This document shows, one piece after another, positions 2,949 through 19,234 of a stretch of DNA of 19,234 bases. The translations under genes and the position numbers were made by a program. The notes beneath the pieces are model-generated. The model had not been told where the DNA came from and did not search any database. It saw only the letters and a program-made list of their open reading frames with translations. Origin of the DNA: a virus (taxonomy: Duplodnaviria; Heunggongvirae; Uroviricota; Caudoviricetes); the IMG/VR virus record IMGVR_UViG_2563366844_000003. One strand, given 5' to 3'. Each line of letters opens with the position of its first letter. Position 1 is the first letter of the stretch.

Positions 2949-2960
2949 CGGAGACTGAAA

Positions 2961-3794
2961 ATGAACATCGAAAAAAGCAGATTAATTTCTGAGGCCGCCC
3001 CTCATCTGAACGCCTCTCTGGGCACAATTAACGGTAATGAATTTGCCGCAATTGTCCCGGTTATTCCTGGTCATATCGGTGGGCGTGAAACCAATATTGT
3101 TAGCGCAAAAGCGTTACACAAAGCGTTGGGCGTGGGAAAAGACTTCTCTACATGGATCACTGATCGCATCTCTGAATATGACTTCACCATTGGGCACGAT
3201 TACTCAGTCCATAAAACAATTTCCCCAAATTTGGGGAAAAGCCCGAATGGCGCGGCTTACAGCAAGATTAAGCAGTCTGGCAGACCCGGCAAAGACTATC
3301 TGTTAAGTGTCGGAATGGCGAAAGAACTGGCAATGATCGAACGCAATGATCAGGGTCGCGCTATCCGTCGTTATTTCATCCAGTGCGAGGAAGAATTACA
3401 GCGTAGCGTGCCTGAAATCGCCGCCCGCTATCGTCGCCAGCTAAAAGCCCGTATCAGTGCCGCAAACAACTTTAAGCCAATGTGCGATGCGCTGAATATG
3501 GCCCGTGCCGAGATGGGTAAAACGACGCAGCAACACCACTACACAAACGAGAGCAATATGATTTCTCGTATCGTTTTTGGTGGGCTAACTGCTAAGCAGT
3601 GGGCGCGGATAAATGGCTATTCTGGCGAACCTCGCGACCATATGAACGCAGAACAGCTTGAGCACCTCTCATATCTCGAAAGCACCAATATCACGTTAAT
3701 TGATATGGGCATGGAATATGAGCAGCGCAAAGGAGAACTCACCCGCCTGTCGCAACGCTGGCTCGCCAAGCGTCTGGAGGCGGTCCATGTTTAA
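2961..3794 (+). CDS. Phage antirepressor, AntA-domain family
   Basis: 277 aa. N-terminal ALHKALGVGKDFSTWITDRISEYDF and the block MAKELAMIERNDQGRAIRRYFIQCEEEL match the conserved AntA antirepressor signature as I recall it. GGAG SD 7 nt upstream. Confidence 0.75.
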   Translation: MNIEKSRLISEAAPHLNASLGTINGNEFAAIVPVIPGHIGGRETNIVSAKALHKALGVGKDFSTWITDRISEYDFTIGHDYSVHKTISPNLGKSPNGAAYSKIKQSGRPGKDYLLSVGMAKELAMIERNDQGRAIRRYFIQCEEELQRSVPEIAARYRRQLKARISAANNFKPMCDALNMARAEMGKTTQQHHYTNESNMISRIVFGGLTAKQWARINGYSGEPRDHMNAEQLEHLSYLESTNITLIDMGMEYEQRKGELTRLSQRWLAKRLEAVHV

Positions 3795-3969
3795 GCCGAC
3801 AGGAACACCCCAACCTCAAAAACGCTACAAAGATGCCCACGGAGCACTCGTTACTGTCGAAAGCGTGTCTCACAACCGAGTGACGTTTTATCGCGACGGG
3901 TATCAATCGCCATGCGTACAACCGCTGGCACGTTTCATGAAGGAGTTTGCGGAGGTTAACAAATGCTAA
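3787..3969 (+). CDS. Small conserved prophage protein (DUF4222-like, tentative)
   Basis: 60-aa ORF starting at ATG 3787, which overlaps the antirepressor stop (ATGTTTAA). MFKPTGTP...RVTFYRDGY...PCVQPLARFMKEF resembles a small family common in enterobacterial prophages. The ORF track extends it upstream to 3700, inside the preceding gene. Confidence 0.45.
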   Translation: MFKPTGTPQPQKRYKDAHGALVTVESVSHNRVTFYRDGYQSPCVQPLARFMKEFAEVNKC

Positions 3970-5030: not shown

Positions 5031-5217
5031 CTCAATTAATGCCCATCGACTTACGTCCGCACTTCAATTAATCGAGCAAGCAGCGGCTGTCCTGGTTGCT
5101 GTCAGTCTTTCGGCTGAAGAAATGGACGCTGTTGATGTCGTGGATGCGATTAAAGCGTGCTCATCTTTGGTTAACGATGCCCGTGCAGAGCTGGTAATTC
5201 TTGGGGGTGAAAAATGA
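5023..5217 (+). CDS. Hypothetical small protein (64 aa)
   Basis: ATG 5023 overlaps the upstream stop; ends in ATGA overlap with the next ORF. Confidence 0.5.
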   Translation: MNNSINAHRLTSALQLIEQAAAVLVAVSLSAEEMDAVDVVDAIKACSSLVNDARAELVILGGEK

Positions 5218-5477
5218 ATATCAACTTAATTTATCGTCATCCGTGTGAGCTGGAAATTGAATCATTGCTGAGCCGTGAAGAGCCATATCCAGACACATTC
5301 ACTCTTGCAGATCGCACGACTGAACGGCTTACCAGAGCGCGCACAGGTCTGGTTCATGTGATGAATGAGATTCTTCCATCGGTGGGAGGGGAACAGGCGA
5401 CAGTAATCACTAGCTGGCTACAAAAAGTTACCTCTCTGATAGATATCAGTTTAATCGATGCGGAGAGTGCGAAATGA
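5214..5477 (+). CDS. Hypothetical small protein (87 aa)
   Basis: Start/stop overlaps with both neighbours (ATGA), consistent with translational coupling. Confidence 0.55.
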   Translation: MNINLIYRHPCELEIESLLSREEPYPDTFTLADRTTERLTRARTGLVHVMNEILPSVGGEQATVITSWLQKVTSLIDISLIDAESAK

Positions 5478-5695
5478 CTAACATCCAGCTCATTGAAGCG
5501 CAATGTCGCATCGAACAGGTTCAGACTGTTTTAGGGTTCTGGCTTGAAGGGGCCAGCCCCAGCAACAGAGACAAGTTAATGATTGGCGCGGTTATGTCAC
5601 TGCTCAATGGCGTACCAGAAGCTATTCAGGAAGCGGACGAATTGTTGGGCAAATATGAGTTACAGAATCATTCAGGCGAGGCGAAACATGAATAA
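5474..5695 (+). CDS. Hypothetical small protein (73 aa)
   Basis: Coupled to neighbours; stop overlaps the start of the next gene (ATGAATAA at 5688-5695). Confidence 0.55.
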   Translation: MTNIQLIEAQCRIEQVQTVLGFWLEGASPSNRDKLMIGAVMSLLNGVPEAIQEADELLGKYELQNHSGEAKHE

Positions 5696-6290
5696 TTTCT
5701 TAACGTTCCATGCAGAAGCAACGCCTGACGGCGTAAACATCATGTACCGCAGCAACGATGGCATGACAGAACGCGTTGAGGCCGTCTCATATATTGATGC
5801 CGTAAATCGTCTGGATGCCGGGGATTATGACGATAAACCAGATGAAGGTATGTCAATACATCTCGCTATTGCCGATGGCGGCAACCAGGGATATTTCGAT
5901 TACACATCACAGCATAACGTCATTATGTGGAGATGGCTGATCGCAACAGTATTCATGCTGGAAATGAGAGAGGAAAACGGCACTGTCAGCATCATTGATG
6001 ATACTGGCAATCCTTCCGAAGTGGCTGTTTATTCCAACGGCATCGTCGCCATGCCGCTGTATCCAGTAGCAGAGCGTCTCGCTATGGCAAACAACATTGA
6101 GGGCGCGATGATAGAACGTTTTGGCATCGAGTCTGGCACAGAACGCGCCATCATTTTCTACAGAGCCATGATGGATGTGGAACAAGGAGCACTGACTCCA
6201 TTTGGTCGTGAAACGCTTGCTGAACTTCACAACAGCTTTATAGCTGAACTGAATGAAAACGGCATGCCAGCGGAACCAGTGACGCACTGA
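5688..6290 (+). CDS. Hypothetical protein (200 aa)
   Basis: Most plausible start is ATG 5688, overlapping the upstream stop; the track's 5583 start lies inside the previous gene. Confidence 0.6.
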   Translation: MNNFLTFHAEATPDGVNIMYRSNDGMTERVEAVSYIDAVNRLDAGDYDDKPDEGMSIHLAIADGGNQGYFDYTSQHNVIMWRWLIATVFMLEMREENGTVSIIDDTGNPSEVAVYSNGIVAMPLYPVAERLAMANNIEGAMIERFGIESGTERAIIFYRAMMDVEQGALTPFGRETLAELHNSFIAELNENGMPAEPVTH

Positions 6291-6300
6291 GGATGGAGCC

Positions 6301-6642
6301 ATGATTACTAAAAATTTCCGACTGAATGCGCTGGCAAATAAGTATGCGTCGGCACTGTATAACCACATTACCTCCACCAGCGACGGGGACTATTTCATGG
6401 TTGATGCGGACGGCGAGGCCGTACGTGTGGAAATCGTCAATGGAGTAAAAGGCGTTCGCAGCCTGATCGATAGCTACACACTGGCAGCCATGAAAGTGTT
6501 CTACCCGCAGTGGGAAACCGTGGGGATCGAGCTTCTTGAGCGTTGCGTCAATAAGGACGGATTGACTGACGTCGGGCGTGAGATATGGCAAAGCATGGTT
6601 AATGACATGGGCGCAACTGTAGCGGGAGGTTCTCATGCGTGA
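6301..6642 (+). CDS. Hypothetical protein (113 aa)
   Basis: GAGG SD before ATG 6301; stop overlaps the next start. Confidence 0.6.
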   Translation: MITKNFRLNALANKYASALYNHITSTSDGDYFMVDADGEAVRVEIVNGVKGVRSLIDSYTLAAMKVFYPQWETVGIELLERCVNKDGLTDVGREIWQSMVNDMGATVAGGSHA

Positions 6643-7006
6643 AAATGCAGAAATGGCGCTTAGCTCCGCAATCGGAGAGCAGGTGGCAAAGATTGCTGGT
6701 GCTGTGTGGATTCATAACCTTCATTCTACTGGTGAAGAGAAAATGGCAATTCAGACGCCAGAGGGACGCACCATTACTACATCTCTGAAGCCGTCAGATG
6801 TTTGTGATCTGATTTGCGCATTCATGTACCCAGCAATGAGGACTGTCCACGGCGATCAGTGGAAACTTGCGACAACCGCTGAATTTGATATGTGGCTAAA
6901 CAATGATGGCATGCTGACTGATTACGGAATAACCAAGTGGCAGATGCTGGTTAGCCATATCGCAAACGCTATAGACCACGTGGGGTACGGTGATGCGAAA
7001 CATTGA
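6635..7006 (+). CDS. Hypothetical protein (123 aa)
   Basis: GGAGG SD before ATG 6635; 3' end overlaps the primase start. Confidence 0.6.
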   Translation: MRENAEMALSSAIGEQVAKIAGAVWIHNLHSTGEEKMAIQTPEGRTITTSLKPSDVCDLICAFMYPAMRTVHGDQWKLATTAEFDMWLNNDGMLTDYGITKWQMLVSHIANAIDHVGYGDAKH

Positions 7007-9749
7007 TCTTATCCGTCAGGTTATCAGTGCGTCTGAAAACAACTGGCCTCATGTGCTGGGCTGCCTGAACATAAATGTCCCTGACTCTCCGCGCCGTCAT
7101 GCTCCCTGCCCTGCATGTGGGGGCAAAGATCGATTCCGGTTCGATGACAACGGGCGCGGTAGCTTCATCTGTAATCAGTGCGGCGCTGGTGATGGGCTGG
7201 ATTTAATTAAACGCGTAAATAACTGCGACACAACAGAGGCGGCGCTTCTTGCCGCTGATGTTCTGGGTATTGATTACCGGACAACGGAAACACCAGAAGC
7301 CACCAGCCAGAAACGGGAACAACTGGAAACCAAGCGCCAGCGACGCGAACAGGAGCGCCTGAAAAGGGCAGAGAAGGACGAACAACAAAGACGGGATACG
7401 TTTTCCCGTCAGTTTGATGACATGCGCAGAAAGGCTGTAAACGGCAAATCTGATTATCTGGTTGCGAAAGGGGTAGGTGATTTTACATTCCCCGTGTTGC
7501 CCGATGGATCTCTGTTGCTGGCGCTGGTGGATAAATCCGGCGCAGTCACAGCAGCACAGACTATTACCTCACATGGTGAAAAAAGACTCCTGACAGGTTC
7601 AGCAAAGCGGGGGGCATATCACGCCATAAACGCACCAGAAACAACACAGAGCATCTTAATCGCAGAAGGGCTGGCAACGGCATTATCTGCCCATTTAATT
7701 CGCCCAGAGGCGCTTACAGTGGCGGCGATTGATGCCGGGAACCTGTTATATGTCGCCCAGGTACTGCGGGATAAATTTCCTTCAGCACAAATCATCATTG
7801 CTGCGGATAACGACCACAGCGAAGGAAGACAAAACACGGGGAGAAGAGCAGCAGAAAAAGCAGCTTTATCTGTTTCTGGATGGGTGGCATTACCCCCGAC
7901 AGATCACAAAGCAGACTGGAATGATTACCACCAAAAACACGGCATTAAATGCGCCACAGAAGCGTTCAATAAGTCAATGTACCAACCACAGGGTAATGGC
8001 GTGAAACAGGAGCCACAGACCATTGAGGGAAGCGATTTTAAGGTTATGGATACCGACCCACTGAAACCAAGAATAGAAAGCCGCGAGGATGGTATTTATT
8101 GGGTATCTCCGAGAGCTGACAGCCAGAGTGGAGAAATCATCAATAACGAAAGCTGGTTATGTTCTCCGTTAAGCGTTATCGGTACTGGCAGAGACGATAA
8201 AGACCAGTATCTCATTCTTCGCTGGCTGTCGTTTGGTTCTGAAACGCCGACAACCGCTGCCATTCCACTGGCTGATATTGGTGAACGTGAAGGATGGCGC
8301 ACACTTAAAGCTGGTGGGGTAACTGTCACGACCAAAAGCAGCCTCAGAGCAATACTGGCAGACTGGCTACAACGCAGTGGCTCTCGTGAATTGTGGCGTG
8401 TTGCTCATGCCACTGGCTGGCAATGCGGAGCGTACATCATGCCTGATGGGGAAATCATCGGAACACCTGAAAATCCTGTGCTGTTCAGCGGGAGAAGCTC
8501 AGCCGCAGCCGGATATACCGTCTCAGGGAGCGCGAAAAGCTGGCGTGATAACGTGGCGCGTCTGGCCTTTGGTAACTATTCAATGATGACCGGGATCGGC
8601 GCAGCACTGGCAGCGCCATTGATTGGGCTGGTGGGCGCTGACGGGTTCGGCATTCATTTCTATGAGCAGTCGAGCGCAGGTAAGACCACCACGGCAAACG
8701 TGGCGAGCAGCTTATACGGCAACCCTGATTTACTGCGGCTGACGTGGTACGGAACCGCGCTGGGGCTGGCAAATGAAGCTGCCGCCCACAATGACGGACT
8801 AATGCCGCTTGATGAAGTTGGTCAGGGCGCTGATCCTGTCAGTGTTTCACAGTCTGCCTATGCGTTATTTAACGGTGTAGGGAAACTGCAAGGCGCTAAA
8901 GATGGTGGAAACCGGGATCTAAAACGCTGGCGTACAGTGGCAATCAGCACCGGAGAAATGGATTTAGAAACATTTATCGCTACTTCCGGGCGAAAAACCA
9001 AAGCCGGGCAACTGGTGCGACTGCTGAATATTCCGTTGAGTAAAGCAGTACGCTTTCACGATTACCAGAACGGAAAACAGCACGCAGACGCACTGAAAGA
9101 CGCTTACCAGCATCACCACGGCGCAGCCGGGCGTGAGTGGATTAAATGGCTGGCAGACCACCAGCAACAGGCAATTAAAACTGTTCGTGACCGCGAAAGC
9201 AGATGGAGAAGTCTGATCCCATCCGATTATGGTGAGCAGGTTCACCGTGTAGCCGCGCGATTTGCCATTCTGGAGGCCGCATTGCTGTTAGGCGAGGTTG
9301 TAACAGGCTGGGATGCTCAGACATGCCGTGATGCGATACAGCACAGCTATAACGCATGGTTGCGCGAGTTCGGCACAGGTAACAAAGAACATCAGCAGAT
9401 TATTGAACAAACGGAGGCATTTCTTAATGCCTATGGGCTTAGCCGTTTTGCACCATTTCCATACAGCCCGGCAGATTTGCCCATCAAAGATTTAGCCGGA
9501 TACCGTCAGCGTGGAGAACATGACGAAAGCCCAATGATTTTCTACACATTCCCGGCCACATTTGAAAAGGAGATCGCATGTGGTTTCAACGCAAAACAGT
9601 TTGCTGAAGTGTTGAAAAAAGCCGGGATGCTAACCCCACCAAACAGCGGTCGTGGATACCAAAGAAAATCACCACGTATTCAGGGACGACAAATAAACGT
9701 TTATGTACTCAATTACCAGCCAGGAGATTACAACTCATCTGAAGAATGA
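6993..9749 (+). CDS. Replicative primase/helicase, P4-alpha-like (zinc-binding N-terminus, TOPRIM, P-loop NTPase)
   Basis: Zn-ribbon CPACGG...FICNQCG near the N-terminus. TOPRIM-like ILIAEGLATA and IIIAADNDHSEG (acidic E and DxD). P-loop-like SSAGKTTT. Start is probably ATG 6993; the track begins at the in-frame GTG 6990. Confidence 0.9.
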   Translation: MRNIDLIRQVISASENNWPHVLGCLNINVPDSPRRHAPCPACGGKDRFRFDDNGRGSFICNQCGAGDGLDLIKRVNNCDTTEAALLAADVLGIDYRTTETPEATSQKREQLETKRQRREQERLKRAEKDEQQRRDTFSRQFDDMRRKAVNGKSDYLVAKGVGDFTFPVLPDGSLLLALVDKSGAVTAAQTITSHGEKRLLTGSAKRGAYHAINAPETTQSILIAEGLATALSAHLIRPEALTVAAIDAGNLLYVAQVLRDKFPSAQIIIAADNDHSEGRQNTGRRAAEKAALSVSGWVALPPTDHKADWNDYHQKHGIKCATEAFNKSMYQPQGNGVKQEPQTIEGSDFKVMDTDPLKPRIESREDGIYWVSPRADSQSGEIINNESWLCSPLSVIGTGRDDKDQYLILRWLSFGSETPTTAAIPLADIGEREGWRTLKAGGVTVTTKSSLRAILADWLQRSGSRELWRVAHATGWQCGAYIMPDGEIIGTPENPVLFSGRSSAAAGYTVSGSAKSWRDNVARLAFGNYSMMTGIGAALAAPLIGLVGADGFGIHFYEQSSAGKTTTANVASSLYGNPDLLRLTWYGTALGLANEAAAHNDGLMPLDEVGQGADPVSVSQSAYALFNGVGKLQGAKDGGNRDLKRWRTVAISTGEMDLETFIATSGRKTKAGQLVRLLNIPLSKAVRFHDYQNGKQHADALKDAYQHHHGAAGREWIKWLADHQQQAIKTVRDRESRWRSLIPSDYGEQVHRVAARFAILEAALLLGEVVTGWDAQTCRDAIQHSYNAWLREFGTGNKEHQQIIEQTEAFLNAYGLSRFAPFPYSPADLPIKDLAGYRQRGEHDESPMIFYTFPATFEKEIACGFNAKQFAEVLKKAGMLTPPNSGRGYQRKSPRIQGRQINVYVLNYQPGDYNSSEE

Positions 9750-9772
9750 GCTTCTTCATGTGCGTAGAAAAG

Positions 9773-9887
9773 GTGTTGGTTCAGTTGGTTCAGTTGGTTC
9801 AATTTATAAATGGTATTGTTTTATAAGGATTTTATTCTTTTTATTGAACCAACACTGAACCAACAACACGGTATTTTGAACCAACAC
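9773..9887. repeat. Iteron block 1: three tandem GTTGGTTCA (9775-9801), an AT-rich spacer, then three inverted copies TGAACCAAC (9845-9853, 9856-9864, 9877-9885); putative replication origin
   Basis: Exact 9-mers counted directly. Classic iteron plus AT-rich architecture, 26 bp downstream of the primase stop. Confidence 0.7.
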
Positions 9888-9935
9888 AATGTGACTGAAT
9901 TGATGCGCACAACACCTGGCTGGCATCAGAGAGTG

Positions 9936-10011
9936 TTTTACGAGACTTTCGTAAAATCCTGTGTACAAGGGCGTGACGTTTTTGAAAGTGAGCACTACGA
10001 AATTTTCGTAG
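9936..10011. promoter_or_regulatory. Two related palindromes sharing a TACGA/TCGTA half-site: TTTTACGA-n5-TCGTAAAA (9936-9956) and CTACGAAA-n1-TTTCGTAG (9995-10011)
   Basis: Perfect 8-bp inverted arms in both. Located between the iterons and the terminator; candidate operator sites or RNA hairpins. Confidence 0.3.
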
Positions 10012-10205
10012 TTCAGAAAACAGCCCTTGAGAAGTTGTTATGCCTGTTCAGCAAACCATCCGCATAGCTGATCGCGAATCAAATTACCAATGGAGCCAGA
10101 AGCAAGGGCAGAACTGAAAAGCGCCTGCCGTGAAGAGTAATGCGACACCATAAATATAGTTTTTAGAGTCCATAAAAAACCTGTCAAAACCTGACACACA
10201 GAACG

Positions 10206-10239
10206 ATGCCACCAGCTACTGAGCGGTGGCATTTTTTTT
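10206..10239 (+). terminator. Rho-independent terminator closing the primase/origin transcription unit
   Basis: ATGCCACC...GGTGGCAT stem (8 bp, extendable with inner pairs) followed by eight consecutive T. Confidence 0.65.
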
Positions 10240-10249
10240 GTGCTATATG

Positions 10250-10320
10250 TTTCATATTTTGCAATTACGATGATGAATGTTGCGATTTGTGAAACTATAA
10301 TAACTGTTGTTTTATACAGT
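10250..10320 (+). promoter_or_regulatory. Putative promoter region for the cargo operon (TATAAT at 10296-10301)
   Basis: AT-rich tract with a consensus -10 hexamer and TTGCAA/TTGCGA -35-like elements at non-ideal spacing, between the terminator and the SD of the small ORF. Confidence 0.3.
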
Positions 10321-10334
10321 TCTAAGGGGGCGTT

Positions 10335-10496
10335 ATGGCTATTTCAGTAAAGCCGGTATTGATAAGTGAGAAGCAAATGGAAGCGATAAAGAAAATTCAG
10401 GAAGAGCAGCGTAAAAAATCAGGAATTGGAGTAGCGCCAACTCTGCATGAAATTGCACGAGGGTTAATAGATAAGGCGCTGGCAGGCTGTATGTGA
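10335..10496 (+). CDS. Small ORF (53 aa) absent from the ORF track; possible ribbon-helix-helix-like regulator
   Basis: Strong SD AAGGGGG 5-6 nt before ATG 10335. Translation MAISVKPVLISEKQMEAIKKIQEEQRKKSGIGVAPTLHEIARGLIDKALAGCM has a beta-strand then two-helix pattern compatible with an RHH fold (by eye only). Confidence 0.4.
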   Translation: MAISVKPVLISEKQMEAIKKIQEEQRKKSGIGVAPTLHEIARGLIDKALAGCM

Positions 10497-10512
10497 AAAT
10501 GGATGGCATCGC

Positions 10513-10974
10513 ATGGAACTAAAATTTATTGATAACCCTGTGCGATTACAGGCCTTTCTTAACGAGCCTGGCAATACCGAAAATATTGTTGAGCCGGGGC
10601 ACACGTACTACATCAAGCCTGATGCGGTATATCTCGGTATCTACGAAGGATTGGTGCTGGCTGGCGTTCATGAAGTGCGTAACTTCTGGCATAACATTGT
10701 TGAATGCCATGCGGTGTACGACCCCGGATTCCGTGGTGAATATGCACTGCAAGGGCATCGATTATTCTGCAAATGGCTTCTCAAAAACTCACCATTCCTT
10801 AACAGCATTACCATGGTTCCTGACACCACCAAATACGGACGGGCAATTATCCGTTTGCTTGGCGCTACCCGTGTTGGTCACCTTGATGATGCTTATATCA
10901 GATGTGGTAAACCCGTCGGCGTAACGCTTTATCAGTTAACTCGGCAACAATATAAGGAATTCAGCGAATGTTAA
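10513..10974 (+). CDS. Putative virion-associated protein, first gene of the ejection-protein-like operon (position analogous to P22 gp14)
   Basis: 153-aa intact ORF whose stop overlaps the next start. Assignment rests on operon position and size, not a recognised motif. Confidence 0.65.
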   Translation: MELKFIDNPVRLQAFLNEPGNTENIVEPGHTYYIKPDAVYLGIYEGLVLAGVHEVRNFWHNIVECHAVYDPGFRGEYALQGHRLFCKWLLKNSPFLNSITMVPDTTKYGRAIIRLLGATRVGHLDDAYIRCGKPVGVTLYQLTRQQYKEFSEC

Positions 10975-11645
10975 TTACCCATATAGCTCATAAATATCTC
11001 AATCGTGCCGTATACGAAAAAGGCGGTGATGGTGGTGCCTCTAAAGCTCAGGCGAAGGCCCAGCAGCAGGCAATTGATTTGCAGCGCGAGCAGTGGAATA
11101 CGGTGATGAATAATCTCAAGCCGTATGCAGAAGTCGGATTGCCTGCTTTACAACAACTACAAGGACTGATGACTCTGGAAGGGCAGAATAAAGCCGCGAA
11201 TGATTTCTTTGGTTCTGGTTTATATAAAACACAGGCAGATCAGGCCCGTTATCAGAACCTTGTCTCAGCAGAAGCTACCGGGGGGCTTGGCTCAACAGCT
11301 ACCAGTAACCAGTTATCTTCCATTGCGCCCATGCTTTATAACAATTGGCTCAGTGGGCAAATGCAAAATTATGGAAACCTGCTAAATGTCGGGATGAATG
11401 CGGCATCAGGGCAGGCAACAGCAGGGCAAAACTACGCCAATAATACCGGACAACTCTTGCAGGGGCTTGGCGCTATTCGTGCAGGTCAGGCGCAGCAGCC
11501 ATCCAGTCTTGCGCGTGGTATTGGTGGGGCGGCATCAGGCGCTTTAGCGGGTGCGCAACTTGGTTCCGTTGTTCCGGGTATAGGTAATGTCGCCGGGGCT
11601 ATTGGTGGTGGGCTTATTGGTCTTGTTGGGGGGCTTGGATTCTAA
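10968..11645 (+). CDS. Putative ejection/DNA-transfer protein (P22 gp7-like architecture; Gly-rich hydrophobic C-terminus)
   Basis: 225 aa. Gln/Ala-rich N-terminal half and a glycine-zipper-like tail GIGGAASGALAGAQLGSVVPGIGNVAGAIGGGLIGLVGGLGF. Stop overlaps the next start (TAATG). Confidence 0.7.
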   Translation: MLITHIAHKYLNRAVYEKGGDGGASKAQAKAQQQAIDLQREQWNTVMNNLKPYAEVGLPALQQLQGLMTLEGQNKAANDFFGSGLYKTQADQARYQNLVSAEATGGLGSTATSNQLSSIAPMLYNNWLSGQMQNYGNLLNVGMNAASGQATAGQNYANNTGQLLQGLGAIRAGQAQQPSSLARGIGGAASGALAGAQLGSVVPGIGNVAGAIGGGLIGLVGGLGF

Positions 11646-12964
11646 TGGCGACATGGCAACTTGGCGGGCTGCCTAGCATGGCACCGCAAAATGATAATGC
11701 TCCTCGTTCTTCCGTTCCTCAGCCTGTGCAGTATCAGCAGCAGCCAAACGTAGGTTTAATGGCGCTACAGGGGCTAAGAGGCGTTGCTGAGATTAATCAG
11801 CAGGCGCAAATTTCCCAGCAGCTAAAAGAATATCAGGCACGGTTGGGTAGTGCGGTAGCTAATAATGATCGTGTTGGAGTGCAGAAGTTAATGGCCCAGT
11901 ATCCCCAGTTTATGGCTGATTCTCAAAAACAGATGGGATTCATTGATGCTGAGCAAAATCGACAGACCGCTGACGCTGCCATGAATCTGCGTCTTGCGTC
12001 ACAAACTGGAGATCCACTGACCATGCAGAAGGCCATTCAGCAGGCAAATCCAGTATTACAGCGATTTGGTCTTCCTGCTGAAGAGGTTTATCAGTCTTGG
12101 CAGAATGACCCACAGGAATTCAACAGAATCACTGACCTCATCCACCTCCATGCTGATCCAAATAGTTACTTTAGTGTTCAAGAGAAGCAGCAAGGGCAGA
12201 GCATTGCACAGCAGAACGCAGATACATCTGCATATAATGCTCAGGTTAATGCGGAACAGGGTAATCGGCGTCTCGATATGGAGCAGTTCAAAGTCCTATC
12301 CGATAACCAACTACGCACGAGAGAAATGGTTCTGAAAGCACGACTTGGACGTGCTCAAAATGACATCGAGAGAGACAAGCTCAATGCTGAACTGAGCAAA
12401 GTACAGCAGGCGAAAGTGGAGAAGATGAACGATAAAATTAATACTGTTGCAGGTAACATCGACTCCTTGAACTCTGCGCTTGAAGTGGGTCATGAACTGG
12501 CGGGAATTGTAGGGAAACATCCTTCGGCCGTTACCCGCTCGCAGAACTATAACCCCCTGACGCTGGGGTTTGGATTCCTTCCTGATGTAGCAGAAGACAC
12601 ACGAAGCCTACGCGCCAAAGCTGATGAATACAACCTAAAGGTTATTCTGCCTAGCCTCAAAGGGACTTTTGGCTCTAACCCAACCGAAGGGGAAAGGGCT
12701 GCCCTTATGCAATCTCAAAATGGCATTAAGTCAGCAACCAGCAATGAGGCATTTTTGCGAGAGTTGAATAAAGCGCAGGACGTAATTATTCGAATGCAGA
12801 AACGACAGATTGCCGGGCTCGGTATTCCTGTAACCAAATCAAAGGACGAAGAAACTGATACCAAAATGCTGTTGCAGGATCCTTCACTGATTAAGGATTA
12901 TGTGACCGCACATGGCTATCTGCCGGAAAGTTACTATCAGGCAAAACTTAAGGGATGGCAATGA
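11645..12964 (+). CDS. Putative ejection protein (P22 gp20-like; Gln-rich coiled-coil)
   Basis: 439 aa, Gln-rich and predicted alpha-helical. Coupled start/stop with both neighbours. Confidence 0.7.
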   Translation: MATWQLGGLPSMAPQNDNAPRSSVPQPVQYQQQPNVGLMALQGLRGVAEINQQAQISQQLKEYQARLGSAVANNDRVGVQKLMAQYPQFMADSQKQMGFIDAEQNRQTADAAMNLRLASQTGDPLTMQKAIQQANPVLQRFGLPAEEVYQSWQNDPQEFNRITDLIHLHADPNSYFSVQEKQQGQSIAQQNADTSAYNAQVNAEQGNRRLDMEQFKVLSDNQLRTREMVLKARLGRAQNDIERDKLNAELSKVQQAKVEKMNDKINTVAGNIDSLNSALEVGHELAGIVGKHPSAVTRSQNYNPLTLGFGFLPDVAEDTRSLRAKADEYNLKVILPSLKGTFGSNPTEGERAALMQSQNGIKSATSNEAFLRELNKAQDVIIRMQKRQIAGLGIPVTKSKDEETDTKMLLQDPSLIKDYVTAHGYLPESYYQAKLKGWQ

Positions 12965-15681
12965 TGGCACAACTGACAGAAAAACAGAAAGCCTATTCCC
13001 GTCATCTCGATGAAAAATATGGTTTCCCATCAGGGACGATGGAAACATTAGTTGGCAATGAATCTAGTGGTAACGGAAGTGCCGAGTCACCGAAAGGAGC
13101 TAGAGGATTTGCTCAACTGATGCCCTCAGTAATGAGTGATGCTGGTTATCGTGGAACTGATCCGCGCTCACTGCCATTTGAAAAGCAAATGGATATCGCA
13201 GCAAACCATCTCAATAAAGGAATGAAGCGATTTGGTGATATTGGTATGGCATTGGCTGGGTATAATTCTGGCTATGCTCGTATTAATGCCGTCAGAAACG
13301 GTAAATCTACACTGCCAGATGAAACGGCTAATTACGTAAGTAAATTTGCAGATGCCGGAATAATCCCTGATGACAGTGAAATCTTGCAGTTTGCACAAAC
13401 CAGTCAACATCGCAATCTTCAGCAGCCTGACTACTCAGAGCTTGATAAAGAAATCTCTCAGGTGGGAGATATTTCTGCATGGGAAGCAAAACGTCAGCAA
13501 TTTAAGAACATAGAAGCAGGACTACCAACAGCCAGTTCATGGGAGCAGAAAAGAGCTCAGTTTCTCGCCGATGAAAATGCCGGGGAACCGCAGCAGCAAG
13601 TAGCCAAGTCTAACCTTAATCCTGAGATGGAATATCTTTCGCCAGGACTGAAAGCTGCGCCAGAGCAGATGGCCAGAGGGATTGCTAATATACCGTTTGA
13701 TGTAATGGACGCAGGCGTGGGGGTAGTCAATGCGGCGCAATCAGCCGGAGCATGGGCAGCTCAGAAGCTTGGTGTGGGTGATGGCACATACACGCCCATA
13801 TCACCTGTCTTTCGCCCAGTAGACCAACCTACAGATCCATACGCGCAGGCTGGTGAGCAGCTAGCACCTTACCTTATTACAGGATTAGGTGCAGGAAAGG
13901 CAGCTACCGCAGCTTCTTCCGTTGCCAACGCTCCACGTGCTGAACGTGCGGCCACAAAGGTGGCTAGTATGTTGGCAGAAAACCTGCCAGGTACATTGGT
14001 GAACGCCCAAAAGAACGGGCAGATCAGCCCAGAAGACCTAGCAAAAGAGACAGGTATTGGCCTAGCAGGATCGCTAGGAGCACGCGCTTTAATAAAGAGC
14101 GGACAGACAGCCAGTGACGTAATGCGAGATGTATTGCGGAGTAATACAAATCAATCAGGCCATGTGTTAGGGGCAGCAAATACTCTGGAAACCGCCAATG
14201 ATGTATCGAAAGCAGCGCGTTCTGCCGTAGGCCGAGAGCATATCGCATCGCAGGCATCAAACGTCAGAGATGATGTCGCTAAGGCGGCGAAAATCACTGG
14301 TATTAATATCAACACCCTGACGCCCGGAATGCGCTCAGGTAGTCGTGGAATTGCCCAAGCAGAAGGTGTTCTGGCATCAACTCCTGGGAATGTTCAGGAT
14401 GCTCACCTTACGGCCTTCAATGAAATATCCTCAAAGTTGAATAAGCAGTTGTCTGATTTCGGTGCTGAGTCTGGAAGCGCATCAGAAAAAAGCGCAGCAA
14501 TTAAAGAGCGCATCATCGCGAGCCTCAGTGATATGAAAACAGCAGAGAATATGGCATGGGCAGAACTGCGAAGCACGATGCCACGCGAAAGGATGAAAAT
14601 GAGTAATGGGATGGCTGTCGTCCAAGCAGAAAAAGCAGCCAATGTTCCACTCAGCCCGGAGATGAAACAGTTTCAGGCTGCCAACAACCAAGGTGGCGGC
14701 ATAACCTTCGACGGGATGAAGGCATGGCGTGCTAAGTTTGCTGATGCTGAACAAGCAAACACCCGGGCAGGTAAGGCCAATGCCGCCCGGATTGCCGGAG
14801 AAATGCGCAGAGCTATCACTGATGACATGCGCATCATGGCTGAAAAAGGAAACTTCCTCACAGAATGGCAGAAAGCTAACGATCTCTCTAAAAGTTACAT
14901 TATCGCCAAACAAAATGCCGAATCTGTTTTTGGTCGAGATCTCGCATCAGACGCTATGGTAAGAAAAGGTGCCGATACGCTTAAGGCATCCGCAAACACT
15001 GGAACGGGAGCTTTTCACCGCCTTATCTCCGCGCTGCCGGAAGCAGAACGCCAACCAGCAATAGCATCTATTCTTCAGCATGCTGTGGCGCAGGGAGAGA
15101 AGGGAGGAATCGGTGAAGAGTCTGGTATCCAGTATTTTGCCAAGCTCATGACCCAGCAGAATGTAAACGCCATCAGTCGTCATGCGCCAGATCTCGGTAG
15201 AATGATGAAAGAGTTCGGTGTACTCGCTAAAGCCAGCACCAGACCGCAGCGATACGTAGAGCGCACGGGAAGAACAACTGAGGCTCTCAAAACGCTCGAT
15301 TCAGGCCTTCCAAAGATCGTCGGTGTGATCATGAACGGAGTTCAACAGTCAGGTGCGATCGCTGGAGGCTTTGGCGGTGGTGTAATTGGTTCGATTAGTG
15401 GTTTGGTTGCTGGTGGCGCACTGAGAAATACTGTGGCTAAGATTGGGGCGACAAGAAGTGGTCGATATGCGATAGAGAAAGCCGTTCAGGAAGCTACAAA
15501 AGCAGTGCGCGCAGGGGCATCACCAGCAGCGATCGCCGCAGCAGAGAAACGATTTTCGACCAATAAAATTGCCATGAAAGCAATTCGTGATGCCGTTGGG
15601 GCTGAAGAATTCGTGAAACTGACAAGGGCCGGGATTGTAGCTACCCTCAGTGGCATGAAAGATGTTAGCGAATGGGAATAG
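12955..15681 (+). CDS. Large internal virion/ejection-type protein with N-terminal lytic transglycosylase (SLT) domain
   Basis: 908 aa. SLT motifs GNESSGNGSAESPKGARGFAQLMP (putative catalytic Glu at nt 13060-13062) and ALAGYNSGYARINAV. True start is probably ATG 12961 or 12964, which have better SD spacing from AAGGGA. Confidence 0.85.
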   Translation: MAMMAQLTEKQKAYSRHLDEKYGFPSGTMETLVGNESSGNGSAESPKGARGFAQLMPSVMSDAGYRGTDPRSLPFEKQMDIAANHLNKGMKRFGDIGMALAGYNSGYARINAVRNGKSTLPDETANYVSKFADAGIIPDDSEILQFAQTSQHRNLQQPDYSELDKEISQVGDISAWEAKRQQFKNIEAGLPTASSWEQKRAQFLADENAGEPQQQVAKSNLNPEMEYLSPGLKAAPEQMARGIANIPFDVMDAGVGVVNAAQSAGAWAAQKLGVGDGTYTPISPVFRPVDQPTDPYAQAGEQLAPYLITGLGAGKAATAASSVANAPRAERAATKVASMLAENLPGTLVNAQKNGQISPEDLAKETGIGLAGSLGARALIKSGQTASDVMRDVLRSNTNQSGHVLGAANTLETANDVSKAARSAVGREHIASQASNVRDDVAKAAKITGININTLTPGMRSGSRGIAQAEGVLASTPGNVQDAHLTAFNEISSKLNKQLSDFGAESGSASEKSAAIKERIIASLSDMKTAENMAWAELRSTMPRERMKMSNGMAVVQAEKAANVPLSPEMKQFQAANNQGGGITFDGMKAWRAKFADAEQANTRAGKANAARIAGEMRRAITDDMRIMAEKGNFLTEWQKANDLSKSYIIAKQNAESVFGRDLASDAMVRKGADTLKASANTGTGAFHRLISALPEAERQPAIASILQHAVAQGEKGGIGEESGIQYFAKLMTQQNVNAISRHAPDLGRMMKEFGVLAKASTRPQRYVERTGRTTEALKTLDSGLPKIVGVIMNGVQQSGAIAGGFGGGVIGSISGLVAGGALRNTVAKIGATRSGRYAIEKAVQEATKAVRAGASPAAIAAAEKRFSTNKIAMKAIRDAVGAEEFVKLTRAGIVATLSGMKDVSEWE

Positions 15682-15831
15682 ACGCTCTAACTAACAAAAC
15701 CATAATAGCCAAGGACGGCATACTGATATTGAGCCAACTATAAAAATTCCATATCACATTACGAGCCTGTGGCTTACATTCGCTTACAGTGATGATAATT
15801 TATAACCACGCAATTCTTAGGTGAGATTATC

Positions 15832-16530
15832 ATGATTAAAAATCTTCTTTTAATATTATCCCTGTCATTATTGGCTGGATGCGTACAAAAACCGTTAGTA
15901 ACGGTCAATGCTTTATCCTCCGGGCAATCTGTCGGTAAGAAGTTCTTGATCATCCCCGCAAGCCAAGAACTTTGGAACACCAAACAGATTGAATACACTC
16001 AAATAGCTACGGTAGTAGCCGCCAGTTTATCAAGCCAAGGATATACACAAGTTAAAGATGAAAAATTGGCTGACCAGGTAATTCTCTTGAACTTTTTGAG
16101 AAGCGGGGCCATTTCAAATACTCGTAATGTAACCATCCCAATATACGGGCAAACTGGTGTGAGCTCAGCAACAACGTACGGAAACTCGAACACCACGTTC
16201 AATAGTTATGGTGGTGGCTACGGTACGGCTAATACCACTGGAACGGCAACAACAGTTTATACGCCTACTTATGGAATTACTGGCGCGTATAACACAACTG
16301 TGACGGACACGTTCTACGGCGCAGGGGTGATACTCCAGTCGTTTGATGCCAAGGCTTATCTCAATAATAGGCAGATTAATATGTTATGGAAAGTTGGTAG
16401 CTCAGTCGTCTCGCAACAGTCTGATGGAATTGCTGATTACAAAGGGTTGGCGAGAATAGCCGCTAGCTATGCCGGGAAAAATACAGAAGGTGATATAACT
16501 TTTAATGTTGACCCTAAAGCACCAAATTAA
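15832..16530 (+). CDS. Lipoprotein with Thr/Gly/Tyr-rich low-complexity core
   Basis: Signal peptide plus lipobox LLAGC. Central T/G/Y/N-rich tract (about aa 110-160). AGGTGAG SD. AT-richer than the upstream operon. Confidence 0.8.
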   Translation: MIKNLLLILSLSLLAGCVQKPLVTVNALSSGQSVGKKFLIIPASQELWNTKQIEYTQIATVVAASLSSQGYTQVKDEKLADQVILLNFLRSGAISNTRNVTIPIYGQTGVSSATTYGNSNTTFNSYGGGYGTANTTGTATTVYTPTYGITGAYNTTVTDTFYGAGVILQSFDAKAYLNNRQINMLWKVGSSVVSQQSDGIADYKGLARIAASYAGKNTEGDITFNVDPKAPN

Positions 16531-16537
16531 CTAATAA

Positions 16538-16553
16538 GCCCGGTACGCCGGGC
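16538..16553 (+). terminator. GC-rich hairpin GCCCGG-tacg-CCGGGC after the lipoprotein gene (weak terminator candidate)
   Basis: 6-bp GC stem with a 4-nt loop, 8 bp after the stop, but a poor U-tract (ATTCAT). Confidence 0.3.
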
Positions 16554-16743
16554 ATTCATGCCCCTATTATTCATGAATCGCTTTTTCTGGAAGGTATGCG
16601 ACAAACGTTAAGTGACATTGCCTACACATTCGGGGCGGGATTTCAAATCCGCTCCCAGTTGATGGGGCCGTTACAGTACGCGCATATCCGCTTTATGTGA
16701 AACAGGAAGATTTTTCTGATATCACTGCCACAGCAAAACACCA

Positions 16744-16956
16744 ATGTCGAGACAAGTACGCGCGCGAGGGTTATCAGTTGCAAAAAGTTTTGCAACTGCG
16801 TCCGACCAGTACGCACACAATGGAGGGGAGTACCATAAAACTGTTCTCTACATAAGACAGAGTGATGGTGATGTGTTGATTATCGGCTTATATGCGCACA
16901 GGACGCGCTATGACGATGTTTTATGCGGGTACACCAATCACATATATCTGGTGTGA
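16744..16956 (+). pseudogene. Possible remnant of a RelE/ParE-superfamily toxin gene (C-terminal motif only)
   Basis: C-terminal HKTVLYIRQSDGDVLIIGLYAHRTRYDD loosely matches the RelE/ParE C-terminal pattern, but the N-terminal 35 aa are not toxin-like and overlap repeat sequence. Weak. Confidence 0.2.
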
Positions 16957-17055
16957 TAAATCGCGTTACATGACCTCTCATGTTGTGCTGGTGGTTATCA
17001 CGACGTTCTGAATCTGGCCTTTGCCTGGTATTTTGCGACAAGTACGCGCGCGTAG
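16752..17055. repeat. Direct repeats GACAAGTACGCGCGCG (16752-16767 and 17040-17055) flanking a 24-bp perfect palindrome CAGTTGCAAAA-AG-TTTTGCAACTG (16775-16798)
   Basis: Exact 16-mer occurs twice 288 bp apart. A third TACGCGCGCG occurs at 19012-19021. Confidence 0.6.
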
Positions 17056-17600
17056 CATCGAAATAATCGGATGGCGTATGCTGCTGGTAATATGAAGACC
17101 GATAGCATTAACCGAAAGGAGAAAGACTTCTCGATAACGGCAAGATCGCGGCAAGGGGGCTGAATTGCGAGGCGAGATTAAGCAACTGTCTTGAACGTAA
17201 AAATCATGGAGCAACATGATGGTACGATTCATTCCATTCTTCGTTCTTTCTGAGCATTGCGTTCAGGCTTAGTCAAAATTAGTGTTGCGAGCGGACCTAT
17301 TAGTAATTGTTAGTGCGATGCGCCTGTTATGGATTGTTATGGTTGTGGCAGGCCTGATTAATATCCAGTATGACCACCAGCTATGAGAAGCCACCTCAGT
17401 GGTTCGCAGTTGCAGGTTTGCACTCAGGTTCGCAGGGTTTTGGCTACTTTCACGTGCGAACCTGCAGAATTGCAAAGGACAACTAAGTCCTCTGGCCAAC
17501 TCCCGGTTTATGAGCGACACAGTCCGCCTGGCGCATCGTTTTCGTCGAGTGCGCCCATCAGCTTGTCCATGGACTATCCACCACTCGATATTAAAGCTAA

Positions 17601-17786
17601 TCATTGGTTGCCAGCCCGCGAATCAAGTTTATTCTGGATCCAAGCTTCAACCTCCTCAAGCGACCATCTAGCTGATCTACCAATTTTAACTGGCTGTGGA
17701 AACGTGCCCGTCTTAACCCATGAGTAGATTGCCGTTTTCTTGAAGCCCGTTCTGAGCATGACTTCGCTTAATTTGATAAGGCGCAT
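17601..17786 (-). CDS. alpA: Second AlpA-family transcriptional regulator, opposite strand
   Basis: 61 aa. MRLIKLSEVMLRTGFKKTAIYSWVKTGTFPQPVKIGRSARWSLEEVEAWI is a textbook AlpA sequence. GGAG SD on the minus strand upstream. Confidence 0.85.
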   Translation of the reverse strand: MRLIKLSEVMLRTGFKKTAIYSWVKTGTFPQPVKIGRSARWSLEEVEAWIQNKLDSRAGNQ

Positions 17787-17835
17787 AGAGGCTCCTCTGC
17801 TTTAGATTAAGCATAGTGACAATCTGGCTTTGGGC

Positions 17836-17870
17836 GGTATCCAAAAGCGAGGTATCCATGTTGGTATCCA
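17836..17870. repeat. Three direct GGTATCCA repeats (17836-17843, 17851-17858, 17863-17870) in the divergent region upstream of minus-strand alpA
   Basis: Exact 8-mers spaced 15 and 12 bp apart, start to start. Confidence 0.5.
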
Positions 17871-17984
17871 CCAAAACGCTGTTTACCAAAAAAGTTACCA
17901 CCGGAACAGGACATTTTGAGCTGTAACTTAACACATAGCATATGGAGTTCACGTATAGACTTCACGCACAACGGCTCCGGCCAG

Positions 17985-18013
17985 TGAAGAATCACCCTGG
18001 CTGGCAATATAAT
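17985..18013 (+). promoter_or_regulatory. Putative promoter (-10 TATAAT at 18008-18013) for the small + strand ORF
   Basis: Consensus -10 hexamer with a weak -35 (TGAAGA) at 17-bp spacing. Confidence 0.3.
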
Positions 18014-18038
18014 GCCGATCACCATCAGAGGGGAATCC

Positions 18039-18215
18039 ATGACACCACGAGAAATCGAGCTGCTGACCATTGCCAAGCTGGAGCATGACGGCCACCAGCT
18101 CAGCCCGGCAGAACTGCGGGAATTAAGGCGCCAGCTGGCAGAGGGCCCTGTAATAGCCAGGCGGTACCGCGAAATGATGACCAGCGCCGCTCCGTGCGCG
18201 GTGAGCAGCACCTAA
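18039..18215 (+). CDS. Small hypothetical protein (58 aa)
   Basis: GAGGGG SD 5 nt before ATG 18039. The track's start at 18012 overlaps the -10 box and lacks an SD. Confidence 0.45.
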   Translation: MTPREIELLTIAKLEHDGHQLSPAELRELRRQLAEGPVIARRYREMMTSAAPCAVSST

Positions 18216-18276
18216 CCAGCACTAGACAAGCCCTGTGCTGGTGGATGTCCCTCATAATTAGCGGTTTTTAAACGGC

Positions 18277-18401
18277 GTGTTGGTTCACGGCCTCTTTTTG
18301 TTGGTTCAAAAATGGGGGGTGTTGGTTCACTTTTTGCGAATAATCCTTTTAAAAACAATACTCTTTACAAATTGAACCAACTGAACCAACTGAACCAACA
18401 C
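18277..18401. repeat. Iteron block 2: three spaced GTTGGTTCA (18279-18287, 18300-18308, 18321-18329), an AT-rich spacer, then three tandem TGAACCAAC (18373-18399); inverted copy of block 1
   Basis: Same 9-mer as block 1, with the tandem and spaced arrays swapped. The reverse complement of the spacer aligns with the block-1 spacer (shared ATTTRTAAA...GTATTGTTTT...AGGATT...ATTC). Confidence 0.7.
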
Positions 18402-18435
18402 CTTTTTGCTTATCTATATAGTCTGAGAGGCAGAA

Positions 18436-18723
18436 ATGATGAGGGACAGGAAAGCTGAAGAGCTGGAGTCAAAAGGGCTATGCCGGAGAGCTGCCGCACG
18501 ATGGGCAGAAGTCATGACGCTGGCAGATGGCGATAAAGAACGTGAACATGCAGCAAACAGACGCTCTGAATGTATCCGTAGGGCGGCACGCCCACCAGCA
18601 ACTACAGACAGATTCGGAGATTTAAGACAGGCAGTTAAGCGAACTCATTCGGCTCTTGGTATGGATGAGGAAGCGAGAGGGTACTTCAGGCGTTATCGCG
18701 ATAAAGATTGCCAGAGACAGTAA
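18436..18723 (+). CDS. PerC-family transcriptional regulator (tentative)
   Basis: 95 aa. N-terminus KAEELESKGLCRRAAARWAEVM resembles the PerC motif (AEKLEAKGLWRRAA.RW.EV) as I recall it. GAGAGG SD. Confidence 0.6.
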   Translation: MMRDRKAEELESKGLCRRAAARWAEVMTLADGDKEREHAANRRSECIRRAARPPATTDRFGDLRQAVKRTHSALGMDEEARGYFRRYRDKDCQRQ

Positions 18724-19106
18724 TGCTCTCTCTGTTTTGGCAAATTACCCCTCACTTTGAAGGGATCGGAGCTATAAAAATGGTGTTATCCGGCTTCCTG
18801 CATTGCAGGTTTTCGAAAAAATCAATGGGTTAGGTCATCGTGCAAATTTGCACTCTGCCAGCCAACGCAATTTCTCGTTGGCGAAAATATCAGGTATTTA
18901 CTGAACGAACGGTCTACCAGTCTATTCAGTTACCAGTTGCACATGGCTGTTTCATGTGAGAACGGAGGTTTTTTCGGACATCACTATTGGGTACAGCAAT
19001 TTCACGAGCAATACGCGCGCGCAGGACAACAAGCCTGAACATGATTACACACCTCGATCGTGAGGGATGTAGACAATGGCTTCTGACCAAAGCACCCAAA
19101 AAAACC

Positions 19107-19128
19107 GTGTACATAAGGGTGTACATAA
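19107..19128. repeat. Direct repeat GTGTACATAA x2 (19107-19116, 19119-19128) with palindromic TGTACA cores
   Basis: Two exact 10-mers separated by GG. Candidate regulator binding site near the window end. Confidence 0.35.
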
Positions 19129-19234
19129 TCAAAAACCGCATTATAAAGAAACCAGCCACAATGAGGCATTAAAGCCAACACTCTACAAACAGATTCAATC
19201 GAGTAAGCGGCATCGCATTGTAGGCCATTGTTAA

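Follow-up and report, generated by a model that had tools for sequence, protein, structure and literature searches.

The stretch of DNA considered here, referred to below as the window, is the complete 19,234-nucleotide IMG/VR virus record IMGVR_UViG_2563366844_000003 (Caudoviricetes). The segment under study lies near its right-hand end, at positions 17,601 to 18,723, and comprises a minus-strand gene of the AlpA family (alpA_1), three direct copies of the repeat GGTATCCA, a small open reading frame (orf58), a block of GTTGGTTCA iterons (block 2) and a PerC-like gene. An earlier reading of the sequence, called the original prediction below, had located all five correctly; it regarded them as a second regulatory module, either the remnant of a second satellite or a circuit with dual control of excision and transcription. 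The segment is interpreted here as the right-hand accessory and cis-acting end of a single phage-inducible chromosomal island (PICI) of the EcCIMP1 type. This explanation as a whole, including a second replication origin cassette and an array mimicking a phage packaging (pac) signal, is favored with moderate confidence. The gene content of the right-end module has already been published, and a second regulatory module as such is ordinary. Apparently new are two cis elements, namely a second, inverted origin cassette and a stand-alone array of the boxes found in genes for the terminase small subunit (TerS), both with putative functions assigned from sequence comparison. No published description of either was found, and both appear undescribed. 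The features on which the argument rests are the following.

6990..9749, plus strand: Pri-Rep, 919 amino acids, with zinc ribbon, Toprim and DUF927 domains, the presumed iteron-binding initiator (Pfam; 2167 homologues)
9775..9885, no strand: origin cassette 1, the canonical PICI origin (ori), directly 3' of Pri-Rep; a tight triple, a centre of 86% AT and three spaced iterons
17601..17786, minus strand: alpA_1, the accessory copy of the AlpA/Xis-family winged-helix gene, 61 amino acids (Pfam, PHROG, identity to EcCIMP1)
17836..17870, plus strand: direct-repeat array of three GGTATCCA copies, candidate pac-signal mimic; starts at 17836, 17851 and 17863, start-to-start distances 15 and 12 bp
18279..18329, plus strand: spaced arm of origin cassette 2; three GTTGGTTCA iterons at 18279, 18300 and 18321, in 21-bp phase
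18330..18372, no strand: AT-rich centre of origin cassette 2, 77% AT against 52% for the window
18373..18399, minus strand: tight triple of origin cassette 2; contiguous iterons at 18373, 18382 and 18391, in 9-bp phase

Genome counts given below refer to a set of 5426 complete E. coli genomes, array searches among viral contigs to IMG/VR, and profile searches to Pfam, PHROG, NCBIfam and Rfam. The window is one island of about 19.2 kb, inserted in the 3' end of yicC. It matches whole islands located between yicC and dinD in E. coli chromosomes (yicG takes the place of dinD where the latter is absent), and its odd final 28 nt are the chromosomal flank of dinD-less strains. The layout (int 1-1260, alpA 2314-2517, Pri-Rep 6990-9749, ori 9775-9885) follows the order in E. 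coli MP1, the host of EcCIMP1, a PICI characterized in 2025 by Pick, Stadel and Raivio (ISME J, PMC11773190). Positions 2507-18516 align with EcCIMP1 at 98.3% identity over 16,071 bp, with shared gene order. The general plan is likewise that of EcCIMP1: next to an integrase gene at one end lie the gene of the AlpA master regulator and a rightward operon that closes with pri-rep and ori; the second AlpA gene is at the far end, on the opposite strand, and a PerC-family gene and P22-like DNA-transfer genes are present as well. The two islands have in common alpA_1 (100% at the protein level), the GGTATCCA array, orf58, both origin cassettes and Pri-Rep as well as the DNA-transfer genes. They differ in the integrase/alpA module, in the insertion site (a tRNA-Thr gene in MP1, the 3' end of yicC here), in the perC allele (52% identical) and in the absence of three genes after perC. 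The whole of EcCIMP1 (19-20 kb) excises and transfers as a unit, and its excision, circularization and transfer depend on the helper phage Kapi1 (PMC11773190). The published account makes no mention of iterons, an origin or a packaging signal (PMC11773190).

The extended context of five E. coli genomes contains one island and one integrase per locus, with no second integrase or integrase remnant. An unoccupied yicC site is present in 1558 of the 5426 genomes, and comparison of attL, attR and the empty site gives one att pair, whose right-hand member is the following.

19107..19206, plus strand: attR; arm-type GTGTACATAA x2 at 19107-19128 and core-like CAGATTCAATCGAGTAA at 19190-19206 (comparison of attL, attR and empty site)

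The imperfect core repeat CAGATTCA..GAGTAA lies at 19190-19206, and arm repeats of the TGTACATA type occur at both island ends. These contexts bear on the suggestion that the module is what is left of a second satellite lying in the opposite orientation, which would account for the second alpA on the opposite strand and for the inverted copy of the origin cassette, and which is also suggested by the recurrence of the alpA_1-cassette-perC block in a decayed thrW island without Rep (L004). However, the five full contexts lack a second integrase or att pair, an outcome that the original prediction had itself named as speaking against the idea. EcCIMP1 moves as a unit, and second cassettes are found family-wide in intact islands of several genera. 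Moreover, a chimeric junction query detected an inverted junction between the cassettes in 0 of the 5426 genomes; an invertible segment between the inverted cassettes was also rejected, as no genome has the inverted arrangement. A second satellite is consequently rejected as extremely unlikely.

Both iteron blocks are copies of the Pri-Rep origin cassette, and block 2 is inverted. Matches to GTTGGTTCA with at most one mismatch number 17 in the window, against 4.4 expected, and block 2 and the reverse complement of block 1 can be aligned, together with their flanks, over about 130 bp. The original prediction had described inverted blocks paired with the two alpA genes. The inversion stands, but the pairing is incomplete as a description, and in each block an AT-rich centre is surrounded by iterons of both orientations, which makes the block a complete origin-type cassette. 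The canonical origin of PICIs and Staphylococcus aureus pathogenicity islands (SaPIs) consists of an AT-rich region with an iteron set on either side, placed immediately 3' of pri-rep (Fillol-Salom et al. 2018, PMC6092414). This arrangement of two iteron sets around an AT-rich region is seen in both cassettes. Cassette 1 fits the canonical origin exactly, whereas cassette 2 lies not directly 3' of the initiator gene but 8.5 kb downstream of it. In MP1 the two cassettes show exactly mirrored geometry. The difference from the canonical PICI origin lies in the second complete cassette 6.5-8.5 kb away or, alternatively, in a second inverted tight triple that closes an extended ori. Canonical PICIs (L006, L007, L008 and L011) have a single cassette only, and in these elements pri-rep is followed by the cassette, one or two genes and then perC.

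The duplication is not confined to E. coli. Of the 17 loci with a TOPRIM/DUF927 Rep that were checked, which represent seven genera, 16 have either a second cassette or a second inverted triple; the remaining locus, E. coli L026, is arranged differently. In Salmonella, Klebsiella, Citrobacter, Enterobacter, Pectobacterium and Lonsdalea, the genes for Rep homologues of about 80% identity are likewise followed on their 3' side by these iterons. Salmonella (L018) and Citrobacter (L022 and L024) possess distant second cassettes with the geometry of the window (0/21/42 and 94/103/112); in L018 and L022, perC follows cassette 1 and not the distant cassette. In a Klebsiella locus (L019), the second cassette, of which 5 of 6 iterons were detected, has almost this geometry and begins 29 bp upstream of an alpA gene on the minus strand. 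The other genera have a single extended ori of 12-14 iterons closed by the second inverted tight triple. The right edge of cassette 2 is homologous in Salmonella, Citrobacter and Lonsdalea. Homology also links the right edge of the extended ori in Lonsdalea with that of the Citrobacter distant cassette, and the same 379-amino-acid gene follows both; the cargo therefore lies between two origin halves. Among eight variants of block 2, which fall into three spacer types, the iteron columns are 99% conserved, compared with 61% for the inter-iteron spacers and 52% for the left flank, a contrast taken as evidence of selection on block 2. The half of the centre next to the tight triple is almost identical to the centre of cassette 1 in most E. 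coli loci.

Three loci show peculiarities of their own. In L001, the same T>C change is found in the middle tight iteron of both cassettes (21784-21792 and 30407-30415), which indicates gene conversion between the inverted copies. The metagenomic element L026, with an 85%-identical AlpA_1 and P22-like ejection genes, has its GTTGGTTCA cassette (2587-2698) beyond the integrase gene at the other end. In L003 (strain MS14385, 5444-9040), the N-terminal primase half of Pri-Rep is 85% identical to that of the window, and the helicase and C-terminal half are replaced by a DUF5906 helicase/DNA-binding module with its own iterons, ACCTRTACC. These are arranged in two inverted blocks flanking two unknown genes, and the old GTTGGTTCA cassette is still present beside perC.

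Block 2 could also be a by-product of origin recombination with no role in replication, its resemblance to cassette 1 being maintained by gene conversion, or it could serve only as a Rep-responsive operator and promoter region of the downstream gene, here perC. The conversion signature between the cassettes agrees with such an origin, as does the flank ACCTTTTTGCTTAT(C/A)TATATA, which travels with the cassette. A weak promoter-like sequence just upstream of perC (CCAACA-16-TATAGT, 18395-18422) overlaps the last iteron with its -35-like hexamer, so that Rep occupancy may affect perC transcription too. Several observations weigh against a replicative role. Cassette 2 is intact beside a Rep with a swapped C-terminus (L003) or with no Rep at all (L004 and L012), so that recent ancestry or gene conversion could account for part of its conservation. 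No DUF927 Rep in the sample (about 80% identity, seven genera) uses an iteron other than GTTGGTTCA, which makes covariation of Rep and iteron uninformative. On the other side, iterons and geometry are kept across four genera despite different downstream genes. Gene conversion cannot explain the three conserved spaced iterons, because the spacers among which they lie differ between cassettes 1 and 2 and among the variants of cassette 2. A block 2 without replication function is considered unlikely.

The closest analogue of the cassette pair is the ori/crr system of phage P4. In the P4 record, the same type 1 iterons are found in crr, immediately 3' of the alpha gene, and in ori, 4.5 kb away beside the AlpA-family gene vis. 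P4 alpha reportedly binds these type I iterons. Common to both systems are short iterons in both orientations, grouped in two separated clusters. One of these lies immediately 3' of the primase-helicase gene; the other is kilobases away, next to a gene of the AlpA family and an operon running divergently. In contrast, crr of P4 consists of two 120-bp direct repeats and its ori contains type 2 repeats, whereas here each site is a single cassette, with the two clusters being inverted copies of the same PICI-type unit, and the helicase domain of Rep is DUF927. A more general comparison can be drawn with iteron plasmids such as P1 (incC/incA) and F, which possess, beyond their minimal origin, a second iteron cluster that exerts control by handcuffing. 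The plasmid cluster has no AT-rich unwinding element and acts negatively. It resembles the present case in being a second cluster of initiator iterons, but here a full cassette is present. The effect of the cassette pair might go either way, positive like that in P4 or negative like handcuffing in plasmids.

In the proposed mechanism, Pri-Rep would bind both cassettes, and the pair would act as a bipartite cis-acting replication region comparable to P4 ori/crr. The interval between them holds helper-interaction cargo, namely the P22-like genes gp14/7/20/16, a gene for a lipoprotein and a variable slot, occupied here by alpA_1. The slot, left of block 2, contains alpA_1, the array and orf58 in the window, in MP1 and in 042, while in other islands it contains an ImmA/IrrE pair or unrelated minus-strand genes, two or three in number; this variation fits alpA_1 as an accessory gene. 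The retention of a second cassette across genera, bracketing accessory genes, suggests a P4-like bipartite replication region in which the inter-cassette interval serves as a cargo slot. A literature search for the iteron sequence returned nothing relevant.

The second cis element is the GGTATCCA array. Exact copies of the repeat number seven in the window, against 0.34 expected, and a triple array at 15/12 spacing is expected 0.005 times per shuffled window; no second cluster is present within the window. At least 120 IMG/VR loci contain the first two repeats, and in 73 of these the third repeat occurs at the same distance. Of these triples, 69 lie inside a gene of about 200 amino acids for the terminase small subunit (phrog_1206, E=2e-89), just past the N-terminal helix-turn-helix (HTH) domain. 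As that terS set had been picked by its DNA pattern, eight TerS homologues were taken independently, by protein similarity alone. All eight have a triple direct repeat at the same codons, with 15/12 spacing in seven and 12/13 in EhrS_49. The three copies agree within each phage and differ between phages; the first base of the middle copy deviates in SEN34 and EhrS_49. The repeats are as follows.

GGTACGCA: HK639, SEN34, KO-TP1, GF-2 and EhrS_49
GGTTGCCA: PSTCR7lys
GGTATCCA: Pseudomonas phage USP_18
GGTTTCCA: Cruim01

The last two both encode Val-Ser, and the change between them is therefore synonymous, yet it is made in all three copies. The repeat type goes with the HTH helix of the encoded protein: (S/T)EG(A/G)IRKRAK accompanies GGTACGCA in five of five cases, THGAINKRAK accompanies GGTATCCA, SHTAINKRSK accompanies GGTTTCCA and THQAISKRAK accompanies GGTTGCCA. 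Covariation of the copies with one another and with the helix points to a DNA site inside the gene that is read by the gene's own product. The usual meaning of such a self-read site embedded in terS would be a pac recognition element. If this is true, the covariation of array and helix would be a readable recognition code for one small-terminase family.

The array of the window has the sequence, order and spacing of the GGTATCCA-type terS arrays, and the inter-repeat bases are partly the same. No terS is present in the window, however, and the array is intergenic and stands alone, unlike those embedded in terS. When about 640 kb of island loci were searched for 7-mers of any sequence repeated three times at 15/12 spacing, arrays appeared only in the islands with the alpA_1 cassette and in L027. 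This metagenomic element, with an 84%-identical AlpA, has several array types within 260 bp (5300-5560), beside two AlpA-like genes. The scan identified GGTATCCA and GGTTGCCA, and GGTAACCA and GGTTTCCA were recognized between them by eye; two of the types match the terS arrays of PSTCR7lys and Cruim01. The viral contig L072 (2195-2490 and 5478-5810) has a stand-alone GGTATCCA array 90 bp downstream (3') of an AlpA_1 homologue (54% identical). It also carries a truncated TerS-like open reading frame of 110 amino acids that retains the HTH domain.

The original prediction had taken the GGTATCCA repeats as an AlpA target, which is probably wrong. In such a scheme, the three repeats would be the operator of AlpA_1 (or of AlpA), on which a head-to-tail Xis-like filament would auto-regulate the alpA_1 promoter. 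The array does occupy positions 50-85 bp ahead of the alpA_1 start, where its proximal repeat overlaps the place of a -35 for a weak -10 element (TATGCT), and Xis-type proteins are able to bind tandem direct repeats, as lambda Xis does at X1/X1.5/X2. The stand-alone arrays of L027 and L072 also adjoin AlpA_1 homologues, but the one in L072 is 3' of the gene and not in its promoter, L027 has several types stacked beside one AlpA, and both L026, with its 85%-identical AlpA, and the Klebsiella alpA are without an array. In addition, the 69 viral-contig arrays inside terS genes have no AlpA nearby, and the repeat type covaries with the TerS helix. An operator function is accordingly judged improbable. 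To judge from these sequence patterns, a stand-alone site for terminase recognition (a pac mimic) is a more probable role for the array than an AlpA operator.

As a pac mimic, the array would recruit the terminase of a helper, so that an island without terS could be packaged. Phage-derived sites of this kind have precedents. In phage P22, the pac site lies in gene 3. For the phrog_1206 TerS family, we know of no mapped pac site. In SPP1 and SF6, direct repeats at or in terS are the recognition elements of the small terminase (PMC4737164), and PICIs of the EcCICFT073 type carry a helper cos site (PMC6092414). The present island shares with satellites that carry helper sites the lack of terS and the possession of a short cis site copied from a phage packaging region; it differs in that the site is a triple 8-mer array of the phrog_1206 TerS family and in that this type mismatches Kapi1. 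EcCIMP1 is without terS as well, and its packaging mechanism was not explained (PMC11773190). The 35-bp array provides a specific candidate site together with a predicted terminase type, namely phrog_1206 with the helix THGAINKRAK.

Five points speak against a packaging function. Kapi1, the only proven helper, has an unrelated terS without a GGTATCCA array. Prophages with the matching terS type are present in only 13 of the 5426 E. coli genomes. The arrays adjoin AlpA_1-type genes in the window, L027 and L072, so that a link to AlpA_1 is still conceivable. The HTH domain of TerS from Bacillus phage SF6 shows little specificity for pac repeats (PMC4737164). Finally, that the terS-embedded triple is a pac site is something we infer. 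As to the helper, Kapi1 transferred EcCIMP1 very poorly, and most hosts of EcCIMP1 are without Kapi1-like prophages (PMC11773190), both of which are compatible with the existence of other, better helpers. Better helpers than Kapi1 are also what the pac reading predicts.

The scarcity of prophages with the cognate terS in E. coli would also suit a different use of the same site, in which the array acts as a decoy against phages using that terminase and does not package the island. Interference with helper packaging is common among PICIs, and EcCIMP1 contributes to superinfection immunity by a mechanism that was left unexplained (PMC11773190). Nevertheless, a single array of three sites would be a weak sink, satellites that possess cos or pac sites of a helper employ these to package themselves (PMC6092414, for cos), and the multi-type battery of L027 fits a broader helper range at least as well. 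Little weight is given to the decoy. A more comprehensive picture can be proposed, in which portable and stackable TerS-box arrays, triple 8-mers taken from within the small-terminase gene of one phage family, would specify the terminase and, as modular packaging signals, set the helper range (EcCIMP1-type islands, L027 with four types, and L072). Separately, the origin of DUF927-Rep islands would be split or duplicated into two inverted cassettes on either side of the helper-interaction cargo, which cooperate in the manner of P4 ori/crr. This combined proposal is tentative, with a chance slightly short of even.

The alpA_1 gene itself belongs to its family by profile search. Its product matches Pfam Phage_AlpA (PF05930) with E=1.9e-13 (50.5 bits against a cut-off of 21) and the PHROG family 'excisionase and transcriptional regulator' with 1.3e-12. 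It is identical to EcCIMP1 alpA_1 at 61 of 61 residues and 43% identical to Xis of Kapi1. The original prediction had held the two AlpA proteins of the window to be distinct, and the comparison bears this out, with only 26% identity between alpA_1 and the first AlpA (2314-2517). In EcCIMP1, the canonical alpA is the helper-induced master regulator, while alpA_1, at the far end and on the opposite strand, is not needed for excision or transfer of the island and aids excision of Kapi1 when Kapi1 xis is deleted (PMC11773190). The dual circuit proposed earlier is thus retained insofar as the two AlpA proteins have different roles, as documented in this near-identical island. The alpA_1 product is a Xis-like accessory protein that can assist excision of the helper prophage, as shown for the identical protein of EcCIMP1. 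The possibility that the GGTATCCA repeats are sites for Kapi1 Xis was rejected, as Kapi1 has no such cluster, either near att or in terS.

The remaining features of the segment are two genes and a candidate promoter.

17985..18013, plus strand: sigma-70-like promoter candidate for orf58, TGAAGA-17-TATAAT, a consensus match only
18039..18215, plus strand: orf58, 58 amino acids, a paralogue of a 61-amino-acid gene that normally follows perC in related islands
18436..18723, plus strand: PerC-family gene, 95 amino acids (Pfam PerC, phrog_994)

The small open reading frame orf58 is a real gene. Its N-terminus, MTPREI.LLT.AKLEH.GHQL, is common to the copies in L005, L010 and L011, and the homology boundary in other islands coincides with its ATG. 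Over 32 codons, 8-11 synonymous differences stand against 8-9 non-synonymous ones, and these roughly equal counts indicate purifying selection. An alternative start at 18012 would give a product of 67 amino acids, and the C-terminal 9 residues differ from those of the MP1 copy. No match was found in Pfam, PHROG or NCBIfam. Of the divergent promoter claimed for it in the original prediction, the reading frame and a plus-strand candidate sequence were recovered. RefSeq/PGAP annotates, instead of orf58, an antisense frame of 45 amino acids (WP_001384871.1, 17948-18085, minus strand; L001 and L002), which is likely a mis-annotation.

The PerC-like similarity noted earlier holds in a profile search (Pfam PF06069, E=8.5e-31, 106.5 bits against a cut-off of 22.6; phrog_994, 4e-34), and a weak match to the ANR family falls below its cut-off. 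The product is only 52% identical to EcCIMP1_025 and represents a different allele of an accessory PerC/ANR-like regulator. EcCIMP1_025, itself of the PerC family, represses LEE1 in Citrobacter rodentium (PMC11773190). The cross-talk with host virulence genes suggested by the original prediction is therefore supported in principle, for an allele that shares only 52% of its residues with the one in the window. Retrieval from species genomes on the basis of PerC gave one locus, a canonical PICI of E. albertii.

Two further reading frames are probably not genes. The 111-amino-acid frame at 17269-17604, which overlaps the alpA_1 stop, was treated as spurious (no family match, implausible composition). 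The terminal frame of 52 amino acids (19076-19234) overlaps the attR arm repeats (GTGTACATAA x2) and the att core. Sequence next to IS110-family (RNA-guided) transposase genes in more than 2400 E. coli genomes matches a fragment of about 95 bp at 17179-17275 with 94-96% identity. A match count of 2560 genomes for the module was due to this fragment and not to the module.

Elsewhere in the island, three RNA families score above the Rfam gathering threshold: the Hfq-binding RNA isrK (4344-4421), a C4 antisense RNA (4484-4571) and the int-alpA RNA (1269-1335). The C4 RNA, the immunity RNA type of P1, P7 and P4, lies inside a region annotated 'ash family/Icd-like', and the int-alpA RNA directly follows the integrase gene; Rfam found no RNA family in the 16.5-19.2 kb interval. 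The P22-like virion-internal genes occupy 10513-15681 and encode DUF2824 (gp14-like), P22_gp7, Inj_translocase (gp20-like) and a gp16-like protein of 908 amino acids with an SLT domain. This set parallels Kapi1_055-058, and a satellite with its own DNA-ejection proteins is unusual.

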